A stretch of 27,471 nucleotides of DNA from the NCBI GenBank assembly GCA_964652865.1, contig CAZZBG010000002.1, positions 1 through 27,471 of the forward strand, given 5' to 3'. The notes under the pieces were generated by a model. That model made no database searches and was not told where the DNA came from. It was given only the letters and a program-made list of their open reading frames with translations. Position 1 is the first letter of the stretch. The number at the start of each line of letters is the position of its first letter. The DNA comes from an uncultured Candidatus Saccharibacteria bacterium (GTDB lineage Bacteria; Patescibacteriota; Doudnabacteria; UBA920). Position numbers and translations under genes: made by a program. Below are positions 9,224 to 21,463 of this stretch, in pieces.

Positions 9224-9910
9224 ATGATTACGAAAACTGCAGCAGAACAAATGCTGGGTATACAAATTTCTAACTTAGATTTGTATATTTCTGCATGTAC
9301 GCACAGGTCATATTTAAACGAGCATAGGAGTTTTCCTTTGCCCCACAATGAACGTCTCGAATTTTTGGGGGACGCTGTGTTGGAGTTGGCAGCTACTGAG
9401 CATTTATATAGAACATATCCATATTCAGAAGGTGAGCTCACCAACTTTCGTTCCGCTTTGGTGAACTATAAGATGCTCTCGGAGATCGCAAATCGTATTG
9501 GGCTTGAACAATATTTGCTCATGTCTCGGGGAGAGGCAAAAGATACCGGTCGCGCACGGCAAGTTATATTGGCCAATGCAATAGAAGCAGTCATTGGTGC
9601 AATTTATCTGGATGTTGGCTTTGCTCCTGCTACTGACTTCATTACTCGAGAAATTTTAGTCGAGCTTCCGCACATTATTCAGTCGGGCCAATACGTTGAC
9701 CCAAAGAGTAAACTGCAAGAAATCGTACAAGAACGGAAAGGCGTGACACCAACCTATGGCGTTGTCTCCGAAACAGGACCAGACCACAACAAAGTGTTTG
9801 TTGTGGCAGCATTTGTGCAGCAAGGAGAAGTAGGAAGAGGTACCGGGCCTTCGAAGCAAGAAGCAGAAATAGCCGCGGCTGAAAATGCATTAAAAAATTT
9901 AGGTATATAA
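9224..9910 (+). CDS. rnc: Ribonuclease III
   Basis: HNERLEFLGDAVLEL signature, LANAIEAVIGAIYLD and a C-terminal dsRBD (DPKSKLQE...GPSKQEAEIAAA). Confidence 0.98.
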   Translation: MITKTAAEQMLGIQISNLDLYISACTHRSYLNEHRSFPLPHNERLEFLGDAVLELAATEHLYRTYPYSEGELTNFRSALVNYKMLSEIANRIGLEQYLLMSRGEAKDTGRARQVILANAIEAVIGAIYLDVGFAPATDFITREILVELPHIIQSGQYVDPKSKLQEIVQERKGVTPTYGVVSETGPDHNKVFVVAAFVQQGEVGRGTGPSKQEAEIAAAENALKNLGI

Positions 9911-13271: not shown

Positions 13272-13301
13272 AAAACACTCCACATGTTGGGGTGTTTTTT
13301 T
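13272..13301 (+). terminator. Rho-independent terminator after rpsP
   Basis: AAACACTCCA-CATGT-TGGGGTGTTT plus T run. Confidence 0.8.
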
Positions 13302-18871: not shown

Positions 18872-19441
18872 CTATGCTTTCCCCAATGTTTCTTTTCCTT
18901 CGGTCCAGTTGGCTGGGCAGCGTTCACCTGTTTGGAGCGCCTTAACGACACGGAGCATTTCTTCTATGTTTCTACCGACAGAATCGGCGGACACCAAAGC
19001 AAATTTCAGTGTACCTTCTGGGTCGATAACGAAAGTCCCGCGTTGAGCAGACCCGTCCATGTCGAGCACGCCGTACATATCTGCTAATTCTTGAGTAGTG
19101 TCTGCGATAATTGGATATGTTACACCTTTTAGTCTGGCATCGGTCTCATACCAAGCTTTGTGCACATACTCACTGTCTGTGCTTGCGCCGACTATTTCAC
19201 AGTTTACTTTTTTGAATTCTTCGTAGAGCTTGCCAAAGCTTTCTATTTCTGTTGGGCAAATGAAGGTAAAGTCTCGAGGGTAGAAAAACAGGACGAGCCA
19301 CTTCCCTTTAAAGTCGGCAAGAGATACATGGTGGTATTCACCGGCGTGGTAGCTTTGTAAATTAGCAAAGTCTGGTGCTTTTTGACCAACTTTTGGCATA
19401 ACATCAATCATTTGGCACCCGCAATCACATGAGTCGTTCAT
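18872..19441 (-). CDS. ahpC: 2-Cys peroxiredoxin (AhpC/TSA family)
   Basis: FFYPRDFTFICPTE (peroxidatic Cys), AQRGTFVIDP, GRNIEE and RCPANW (resolving Cys). Confidence 0.95.
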   Translation of the reverse strand: MNDSCDCGCQMIDVMPKVGQKAPDFANLQSYHAGEYHHVSLADFKGKWLVLFFYPRDFTFICPTEIESFGKLYEEFKKVNCEIVGASTDSEYVHKAWYETDARLKGVTYPIIADTTQELADMYGVLDMDGSAQRGTFVIDPEGTLKFALVSADSVGRNIEEMLRVVKALQTGERCPANWTEGKETLGKA

Positions 19442-19620
19442 AGTGTTCTTTTAGAAATACGAGCAGCTGGGAAGCTACTTCGTGAATATTAATAGTTTGT
19501 ATTTGTATAATAGCGGGCGGTGACGTTCCATGCAACAGAAGCTTGGGTTTGGGCTCTTGGGTGGGGGATATGTTTCATTACAGCCCCGGTTTTCTTTGGT
19601 TTGGGAACGATATGATCAAA

Positions 19621-19650
19621 TTGACCTACTCGAGAGTAAAATGGTATAGT
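19621..19650 (+). promoter_or_regulatory. sigma70 promoter upstream of the structured RNA and rny
   Basis: TTGACC, 18 nt spacer, TATAGT preceded by TGG. Confidence 0.7.
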
Positions 19651-19672
19651 AAAAACAGTTATTGCTAATTAT

Positions 19673-19906
19673 TTCAGGCTTCTGATGTAACTGTTAGTTG
19701 TAAAGATACGCGTTCAAGTTCCTTTTGATTTTCCCATGAGATTTGATTTTTTTGTTCAAACCCCATACTTTTCTGTAGATTTTCAACCAAAAGTAGATCG
19801 CCACAGTGCGCGTGAGCGTGTTTTATCTGGATTTGTGAAAGTTCTCTAAACGGACTGCACTTCCGGATTTTTCTTTGCAAAACAGTATATATCAGGTCCT
19901 ATTGAA
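19673..19906 (+). ncRNA. Structured RNA candidate (6S-like, or rny leader)
   Basis: Long closing stem TCTGATGTA/TATATCAGG, ACTGTT/AACAGT and TTGTAAAGA/TCTTTGCAA. Its G-U pairs favour the + strand. It lies directly behind a promoter. Confidence 0.5.
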
Positions 19907-19915
19907 GGAATCTGT

Positions 19916-21463
19916 ATGGTTTTTTTGTATATTTTACTCGGTCTCGTTTTGGGCGGGATTGTGGGGTATGCAATCCGACAAGGATTGGCGACCCAGAAAA
20001 TTGGTACCGCAGAAAGTAAAGCGGAGAAGATTTTGGAAGATGCTCGCACTAAAGAGCGCGAGCTTTTGCTCGAAGCAAAGAGCAAAGCTCTAGAGATAAC
20101 CGAGCAAGGTAAGCGAGCTGAAAATGAGTTTCGTGCTCAGATTGTTCGGTTCGAAGAGCGAATTGATCGTCGGGAAAAAGAGTTGACCCAAAAAGAGCAA
20201 AATATCGACAGTGCGAAACAGCAGCTAGAGGTCAAACAAGCTGAAATTCAAAAAGCGCTTGATGAAGCAAAAGAAGTGAAGGCAAAGCAGCTGGCTACTT
20301 TAGAAAAAATAGCAGGTCTCAGCCGTGAAGAGGCTGGTAAAGTGCTCATGGAAAATGCAGAACGTACTATTTCCGAAGAAATGGTTAAACTCCATAGGAA
20401 GTTGGTTGCAGGCGCGCATGAAACTGCAGAAAAGGAAGCAAAGCGTATAGTGGCAGAAGCAATCGACCGTGTCGTCAGTGACGTAACCGCAGAAACAACT
20501 ACCACAACCGTGGCACTACCAAGCGAAGAACTGAAAGGACGGATTATTGGAAAAGAGGGTCGCAACATCCGCGCGTTCGAGCAGATGATGGGTGTAGAAA
20601 TATTGATTGATGATTCTCCAGATACAGTAATCATTTCTGGGTTTAACTCTATCCGCAGGCACATTGGTAAATTAACACTGGAAAAGCTGGTTTCGGATGG
20701 ACGGATCCACCCTGCACGCATTGAAGAAGCGTACGAGAAGAGCAAAGCAGAAATAAATGAACAGATAAAACAGGCGGGAGAAGACGCCGTCTACGAACTG
20801 GGAATTACCAATTTTCCTCCAAAGTTAGTACATCTTGTTGGTCGCCTTATGTTCCGTACGAGCTATGGGCAAAATGTACTTCGTCATTCGGTTGAGATGG
20901 CAAAGCTTGCTGCGTTAATGGCAGAAGAACTTGGAGCAGATCAGCAGATTGTAAAGCAAGGTGCGTTGCTGCATGACATTGGAAAAGCGTTGGACCAGGA
21001 CCTAGAAGGCACGCATGTCGAGATTGGCCGGAAGATTGCAGAAAAGTTCGGTTTGGATGAGAAAGTTATAGAAGCGATTGAGTCTCACCATCATGATACT
21101 GATGTGGCAGAACATGCGCATAAGCACGAAGGACCAATGTCCATTGAGGCTATGATTGTGGATGCTGCAGATACTATCTCTGGTGGTAGACCAGGCGCTC
21201 GCAAAGATAGTTTTGAGAACTATGTAAAGCGTCTCACTGATCTGGAAAACATAGCAAACAGCTATGATGGTGTAGAAAAAACATATGCCATTCAAGGTGG
21301 TCGTGAGCTGCGCGTTTTTGTGACCCCAACCAAGATGGATGACCTCACCGCACAAAAGCTCGCTCGTGAAATTGCGAATCGCTTAGAAAATGAACTGAAG
21401 TTTCCTGGCGAAATTCGGGTAGTAGTCATTCGAGAAACAAGAGTTGTAGAGTACGCGAGATAA
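19916..21463 (+). CDS. rny: Ribonuclease Y
   Basis: N-terminal TM, coiled coil, KH (KGRIIGKEGRNIR), HD (LLHDIGK) and C-terminal SGGRPGAR...YAIQGGRELRV. Confidence 0.98.
   Translation: MVFLYILLGLVLGGIVGYAIRQGLATQKIGTAESKAEKILEDARTKERELLLEAKSKALEITEQGKRAENEFRAQIVRFEERIDRREKELTQKEQNIDSAKQQLEVKQAEIQKALDEAKEVKAKQLATLEKIAGLSREEAGKVLMENAERTISEEMVKLHRKLVAGAHETAEKEAKRIVAEAIDRVVSDVTAETTTTTVALPSEELKGRIIGKEGRNIRAFEQMMGVEILIDDSPDTVIISGFNSIRRHIGKLTLEKLVSDGRIHPARIEEAYEKSKAEINEQIKQAGEDAVYELGITNFPPKLVHLVGRLMFRTSYGQNVLRHSVEMAKLAALMAEELGADQQIVKQGALLHDIGKALDQDLEGTHVEIGRKIAEKFGLDEKVIEAIESHHHDTDVAEHAHKHEGPMSIEAMIVDAADTISGGRPGARKDSFENYVKRLTDLENIANSYDGVEKTYAIQGGRELRVFVTPTKMDDLTAQKLAREIANRLENELKFPGEIRVVVIRETRVVEYAR

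Follow-up and report, generated by a model that had tools for sequence, protein, structure and literature searches.

The stretch of DNA analysed here (27,471 nt, hereafter the window) belongs to an 884-kb, 91%-complete genome assembly. Two divergent genes border the element under study: a peroxiredoxin gene (AhpC/TSA; 18872-19441, minus strand) and rny (19916-21463, plus strand), with the leader of rny situated in the 474-nt gap that separates them. The start codon of rny is the ATG at 19916, and its 515-aa product, RNase Y, contains the Pfam RNase_Y_N, KH and HD domains. In bacteria that possess RNase Y, this enzyme initiates most of the mRNA decay, and its amount needs to be controlled. Genes for RNase J and PNPase are present in the same genome, and an RNase III gene was identified in the window, 10 kb upstream of rny (9245-9901, plus strand; TIGR02191, 230.7 bits). 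rny was detected in 40 of 41 close relatives and in 91 of the 95 genomes of the family. One genome within the genus (locus L027, G006:C14:2789-4307) gave a split rny match, covering residues 2-150 with one in-frame TAA and residues 155-515; this gene may be broken or mis-assembled, and the leader there is intact. The divergent peroxiredoxin is the usual upstream gene, but in some members another gene takes its place, so the leader travels with rny.

A consensus scan located a promoter at 19621-19650 (plus strand), with the -35 box TTGACC at 19621-26 and the extended -10 box TGGTATAGT at 19642-50. It has the near-consensus form TTGACC-N18-(TGG)TATAGT and lies upstream of the long hairpin, as the original prediction had proposed. 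The two boxes do not vary among the nine genomes of the genus, whose flanking sequences diverge, and 29 of the 30 promoter bases are identical in the nearest species. Within the family, the pattern TTGAC-N17-TGGTAnnnT was found 170-290 nt 5' of the rny ATG in ∼85 genomes. The position of the -10 box places the predicted transcript start at ∼19657, and transcription from this strong promoter would therefore begin ∼260 nt 5' of the rny start codon. The 5' end of the predicted transcript (19657-19671) is an AU-rich tail which contains GCTAATTATTT and is unpaired or weakly paired in the computed fold, and an AU-rich 5' motif (GATTAATTT or ACTATTTT) is kept across genera. Judged from the sequence, rny has a long 5' UTR transcribed from its own promoter and kept among relatives, with a predicted start site. 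When four metatranscriptomes were searched at 80% likeness, they contained only rny coding fragments of distant relatives, and the depth over 19300-19992 was 0. In one genome of genus g43, sub-threshold matches to the tmRNA clan (23.9 bits) and to mascRNA (35.9 bits) were observed upstream of the rny promoter (L038:216-319, minus strand), which may represent a tRNA or a tRNA-like element adjoining the leader.

The structure of the leader was investigated by computing the minimum-free-energy fold of 19657-19915. In this fold a 5' arm (19672-19706, plus strand) pairs with a 3' arm (19872-19907) to form a segmented closing rod of ∼31 bp, composed of the helices 19672-76/19903-07, 19677-78/19898-99 (GG/CC), 19681-89/19888-96, 19690-95/19881-86 and 19698-706/19872-80. 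All four helix segments named in the original prediction, which had put the total at ∼28 bp, are contained in the fold at the same positions. The two rod arms alone had a duplex energy of -29.7 kcal/mol. The rod encloses an inner branch (19708-19821), in which a stem (19708-16/19813-21) surrounds hairpins at 19722-40, 19742-60, 19766-95 and 19799-812. The hairpin at 19766-95 aligns with a UUUGGUU/AGCCAAA hairpin of other genus members, and a counterpart of the inner branch (P3/P4) occurs in other genera. On the 3' side follows a terminator-like composite hairpin of 15 bp (7+3+5; 19825-19868, -13 kcal/mol) and then a T run. The CGGA/TCCG hairpin noted earlier on this side is present as its outer stem (19825-31/19862-68), and TTTTTCTTT lies directly 3' of the hairpin (spacer 0, tract T5CT3). 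The U tract, TTTTTCTTTGCAA (19868-19880), doubles as the inner 3' strand of the rod, in which 19872-80 pairs with TTGTAAAGA at 19698-706.

The Shine-Dalgarno (SD)-like sequence GAAGGA is located at 19904-19909 and matches the SD of relatives in position. The base of the rod pairs its GAAG in the window's leader, so that the predicted overlap between the SD and the stem base was also found in the fold. An alternative SD hairpin (19888-19918, -7.5 kcal/mol alone) pairs the core CAGGTCC (19893-99) with GGAATCTG (19907-14). An ATGTAA start-stop frame is found at 19685-19690 within the 5' arm, 6 nt after an AGG; the nearest species has it too, whereas other members of the genus do not, and it is probably due to chance. 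The single-sequence fold of -60.8 kcal/mol was modestly better than that of shuffled sequences (z -2.1; 5 of 200 shuffles as good), and the fold of the opposite strand of 19657-19915 was not better than its shuffles (z -1.1). With a single-sequence z this modest, the case for a structure beyond chance rests on comparative evidence.

The comparison with the nearest species revealed 15 differences in 259 leader positions (5.8%). The fourfold-degenerate sites of rny were 35.6% divergent and the spacer from the ahpC start to the -35 box 18%, and the RNase Y proteins were 99.6% identical. As read from these divergences, the leader is under strong purifying selection. Nine of the 15 differences were located in the apex of the terminator-like hairpin; the stem is kept there by a change from AGTTC/GGACT to GTGCTC/GAGCAC. 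These nine substitutions lie within 24 nt (19834-19857, compared with L003:1242-1512), and elsewhere the two leaders were 97-98% identical. It looks as though the segment had been replaced locally or had undergone a burst of compensatory changes.

Every relative examined folded into the same rod, and the rod is conserved 5' of rny. The common design of the leader consists of a rod formed by its 5' and 3' parts, a three-way junction, a terminator-like hairpin with a U tract, and an SD-sequestering hairpin that competes with the rod. From 5' to 3', the leader contains an AU-rich tail, a 5' arm with an SD-like GUAAG, a GCAAA box, a variable branch, a hairpin followed by UUUUUGC (which pairs with GCAAA), the anti-SD CCUUAC, a loop complementary to the start of the 5' arm (e.g., UCCGCAAAG with CUUUGCGGA), the SD GUAAGG, and AUUUUAUG. 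The most conserved letters are TTTTTGC and its partner GCAAA. Letters are also conserved at the junction (GCAAA, UCUUUUUU, AGAAAGAU and UUUUUGC), although the junction sequences differ between genera, e.g., between g1, the genus of the window, and g3.

Other families of the same order have the same leader design, and more distant Doudnabacteria have long rny leaders with closing helices. In 24 genomes from other families of the phylum the regions upstream of rny were heterogeneous, with some promoters less than 60 nt from the ATG, so that not all Patescibacteria share this leader. Two Moraniibacteria showed another kind of rod 5' of rny, with GCAAAAAAG/CTTTTTTGC. In L167 and L169 (Candidatus Moraniibacteriota) a long hairpin lies ∼15-130 nt upstream of rny, in which GCAAAAAAGA pairs with TCTTTTTTGC. 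This hairpin echoes the GCAAA/UUUGC helix of the Doudnabacteria, which suggests that the core may be older and more widespread.

The pairing of the rod arms was analyzed across relatives by calculating duplex energies between the first 70 nt of the leader and the last 45 nt before the ATG, for cognate and non-cognate pairs. Among 78 leaders, cognate arms averaged -24.7 kcal/mol and non-cognate arms -15.7 kcal/mol. With one leader for each of 24 genera the values were -25.4 and -16.2 kcal/mol (z -11.6), and none of 10,000 permutations reached a mean as low as that of the cognate arms. The cognate partner ranked within the top three of 24 for 23 genera. In two control regions subjected to the same duplex test, the cognate advantage was absent. 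At the level of sequence, the rod arms co-evolve, and the covariation that was to be sought upstream of rny was found. The z-scores of the leader folds had a median of -2.8 and were negative in all 24 genera.

A covariance model (R1; 168 positions, 39 pairs) was built from 12 leaders using a voted structure. This procedure was used because plain MAFFT alignment with RNAalifold recovered only the outer rod, one inner hairpin and the terminator-like hairpin, as indels shift the register. The model recovered 34 family leaders at E < 7e-4. In the alignment of these 34 leaders, which the model had fitted to the structure with an inflating effect on the pair counts, 77.7% of the cells were paired, compared with 66.1% after shuffling and 30-47% with slid partners. 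Changes on both sides were present in 32 of the 39 pairs of this alignment, and its covariation score was 0.322 compared with 0.163 for shuffled alignments, none of 500 shuffles reaching the observed value. Hairpin P5, the equivalent of the terminator-like hairpin, was 93% paired in the family alignment and contained six covarying pairs. In an unfitted MAFFT alignment of the window's genus, 72.7% was paired, compared with 25-49% with slid partners. The secondary structure is thus conserved among relatives and supported by covariation in the aligned sequences. A search of whole genomes with the model gave matches in 31 of the 95 family genomes, one in each and always a few nt before rny. The model finds neither the leaders of g1 nor those of g43, since their sequences have drifted too far, and homology in the window's genus therefore rests on promoter, position, architecture and the duplex tests.

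The 3' part of the leader can form two pairings. The outer 3' strand of the rod consists of the same anti-SD and the same loop that belong to the SD hairpin. A local hairpin between SD and anti-SD was present in 78 of 78 family leaders, with a median of -8.3 kcal/mol. Its halves covary, with -10.6 kcal/mol for fitted cognate halves compared with -6.1 kcal/mol, and -8.8 compared with -6.7 kcal/mol when fixed windows were used (0 of 10,000 permutations). The rod is much more stable, at -20 to -35 kcal/mol. As there are zero linker nucleotides between the elements, rod and SD hairpin are most probably mutually exclusive. A pseudoknot in which the SD hairpin coexists with the pairing between its loop and the 5' arm was considered and rejected as sterically implausible without linker nucleotides, and the two pairings were treated as alternatives. 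In a thermodynamic model, the predicted openness of the SD had a median of 0.37 in the full leader and 0.07 once the first 70 nt were removed; the full leader gave the more open SD in 60 of 77 leaders and 19 of 24 genera. The genus of the window deviates from this: its values were 0.29 for the full and 0.41 for the truncated leader, and the model predicts no freeing of the SD by the rod.

The leader was compared with known RNA families. No match was obtained when the Rfam models, including 6S, were run on the window at the gathering score, when all Rfam families were run on 19400-20000 at E<=10, or when Rfam was run on the leaders of 20 relatives at E<=1. A 6S RNA was also not found when RF00013 was run on the whole 91%-complete genome at E<=10, so that each of these searches went against the 6S RNA reading which the original prediction had set beside an autoregulatory leader. 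In architecture, the leader shares the closing stem with 6S RNA, but the conserved part within it is a three-way junction from which a variable branch and a terminator-like hairpin extend. A mobile inverted-repeat element (MITE) was rejected, as the only match in the 884-kb assembly is the element itself. A small protein gene was rejected as well: the longest frames in relatives shift in strand and length, have a family median of 32 aa and gave no Pfam match. An antiterminator, in which the 5' AU-rich motif would pair with the 3' arm of the hairpin, is possible in several genera (UUAAUUU/AAAUUAG); it was dropped because the window's genus keeps the motif but has an unrelated hairpin sequence. 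A literature search for a motif in the rny leader or for a 6S RNA in this lineage found neither described, and it gave no support to the statement of the original prediction that 6S RNA lies upstream of rny in some phyla. The leader is thus neither a member of a described RNA family nor a protein gene or a repeat. It is well supported as a previously undescribed structured RNA outside the families of Rfam, and its most likely function is that of a control switch for rny, not of a 6S RNA.

The conserved promoter, the occurrence of the element only before rny, the covarying arms and the competing SD hairpin all fit the reading of 19657-19915 as a structured, cis-acting 5' leader of the rny mRNA, conserved in Candidatus Doudnabacteria and probably autoregulatory, which we consider the probable explanation. 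The comparative evidence for a leader is strong, while its effector and mechanism are proposals. The second reading of the original prediction, an autoregulatory RNase Y leader, accordingly stands in its first part, as a leader of rny agrees with all findings, and its autoregulatory part is what we infer. RNase Y is suggested as the effector by analogy and not by a computational tie. RNase Y prefers AU-rich single strands adjoining structure. The leader may set the amount of RNase Y, most likely via negative feedback. An endonuclease, either RNase Y or, in the rod, RNase III, would cut the 5' tail, the junction or the rod, and exonucleases (RNase J, PNPase) would then strip away the 5' arm. 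The anti-SD would close onto the SD and translation of rny would cease. Premature termination at the terminator-like hairpin may act as a second brake.

A further-reaching version, which we consider quite improbable, is that the leader is a sensor of RNA-decay capacity, built as an RNase-operated switch of three parts (SD mimic, anti-SD and SD), and that it might also bind RNA polymerase. The endonuclease cut and the loss of the 5' arm would then flip the co-evolving switch, and such an RNase-operated arrangement would be a new design. If the leader, or a ∼220-nt RNA ending at the internal hairpin, does bind RNA polymerase, transcription would be coupled to decay, and the 6S-like idea would be partly vindicated in a lineage with no detectable 6S RNA.

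Several other explanations were weighed against the proposed autoregulatory leader. The one that we regard as unlikely, but as the most plausible among them, is a leader processed by RNase III, in which the rod is cut and its 5' strand removed, so that stability and translation of the rny mRNA are controlled without RNase Y acting as the sensor. In most members the rod is longer than two helical turns and has few interruptions, and RNase III is encoded in the window itself, with PNPase elsewhere in the genome. Bulges and internal loops at varying positions do interrupt the rods, however, and this explanation overlaps the preferred one except for the enzyme. It is rather unlikely that the element is an attenuator or an independent small RNA, with most transcripts stopping at ∼19876 to release a free RNA of ∼220 nt that has its own function and rny being expressed only by controlled read-through. 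The 15-bp hairpin (-13 kcal/mol) followed by TTTTTCTTT resembles true terminators of the genome, e.g., that at 13272-13298, and a hairpin and T run separated by 0-2 nt were present in 50 of 72 leaders. The T runs, though, are mostly of 4-5 nt, the spacer is 3-7 nt in many members, and the stems are AT-rich in most genera. Moreover, the U tract is required in any case as the rod strand that pairs with the conserved GCAAA, and selection extends 3' of the hairpin into the outer rod and the SD hairpin, which a free small RNA would not need.

Binding of a metabolite or of a non-RNase protein to the junction, which would tip the balance between rod and SD hairpin, would agree with the two mutually exclusive, co-evolving pairings around the SD and with the conserved letters at the junction. 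Riboswitch classes, however, usually control several genes of one pathway, and here there is one element per genome, only before rny. Ligand-gated P1 helices are also much shorter and much less stable than the closing helix here. Together with the change of junction letters between genera (g1 compared with g3), the single copy and the very long closing helix indicate that the leader probably does not belong to a riboswitch class, and we consider this explanation very unlikely. For a divergent 6S RNA co-transcribed with rny, whose rod would mimic an open promoter and sequester RNA polymerase, one can cite the long rod-like shape, the roughly right size and the 6S niche left unfilled in this genome by the negative RF00013 search. 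In B. subtilis, rny mRNA was found together with RNA polymerase upon purification of the latter (PMC11077062), which leaves a small chance of a role related to RNA polymerase. We nevertheless rate a 6S RNA as highly improbable: neither this leader nor those of 20 relatives matched the 6S and 6S-like Rfam models, the branched junction is conserved and the central bubble and apical stem are absent. In addition, the 3' arm is made up of the anti-SD and loop at the start region of rny and shows covariation with the SD, and the rapid sequence turnover between genera differs from the conserved bubble-flanking features of 6S RNAs. Finally, we give practically no credence to a chance hairpin, a mobile inverted repeat or a small protein gene. 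The single-sequence z of only -2.1 and a 68-aa open frame on the minus strand (19674-19880) would be in their favor, but the element is single-copy, covaries across 24 genera and shows strong purifying selection.

To our knowledge, the control of RNase Y dose has been worked out only in B. subtilis, and we know of almost no regulatory RNAs in this uncultivated lineage with tiny genomes. The leader offers a handle on how bacteria with reduced genomes set their RNA-decay capacity. Mutations could test its anatomy, in which two co-evolving pairings around the ribosome-binding site exclude each other, and the covariance model is ready for use in annotation.

The leader shares individual features with several known systems. 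Like 6S RNA (RF00013 and related families), it is an RNA of ∼200 nt with a long closing helix, and 6S RNA can share a transcript with the gene that follows it (ssrS-ygfA in E. coli). It differs from 6S RNA in that a three-way junction replaces the central bubble and apical stem, and in that its 3' arm lies in the translation start region of rny. In E. coli, RNase E autoregulates via the 5' UTR of rne, where a stem-loop bound by the enzyme speeds cleavage elsewhere. The rne 5' UTR (RF00040) and the leader described here are both long, conserved, structured leaders of the gene for the main decay-initiating endonuclease, but the rny leader has no Rfam match, and enzyme family, structure and lineage differ. 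The pnp and rnc leaders of E. coli contain long stems cut by RNase III, and loss of one stem strand alters what becomes of the transcript. The rny leader resembles them in preceding an RNA-decay gene and in having a long double-stranded stem; here, unlike there, the rod competes with an SD hairpin, and cleavage by RNase III is only a proposal.

The leader of rny itself has been studied in B. subtilis, where a 164-nt 5' UTR mediates autoregulation of RNase Y; the 5' part of this UTR is AU-rich and its ribosome-binding site is structured (PMC10303841, Korobeinikova et al. 2023). There, RNase Y cuts within the first 50 nt of its own leader and RNase J1 then trims toward the ribosome-binding site (PMC10303841). 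No sequence or model similarity was detected between the two leaders. A rod of ∼30 bp joins the 5' part to the anti-SD in the leader described here, which also has a terminator-like hairpin; no such rod has been described in B. subtilis, and the structure at its ribosome-binding site reaches into the coding region. Autoregulation has been demonstrated in B. subtilis and is what we infer here. The two systems have in common the gene, a long leader transcribed from the gene's own promoter (164 nt in B. subtilis and ∼260 nt here), an AU-rich 5'-proximal part beside structure, and a ribosome-binding site within secondary structure. RNase J, which finishes the decay in B. subtilis, is encoded here too.
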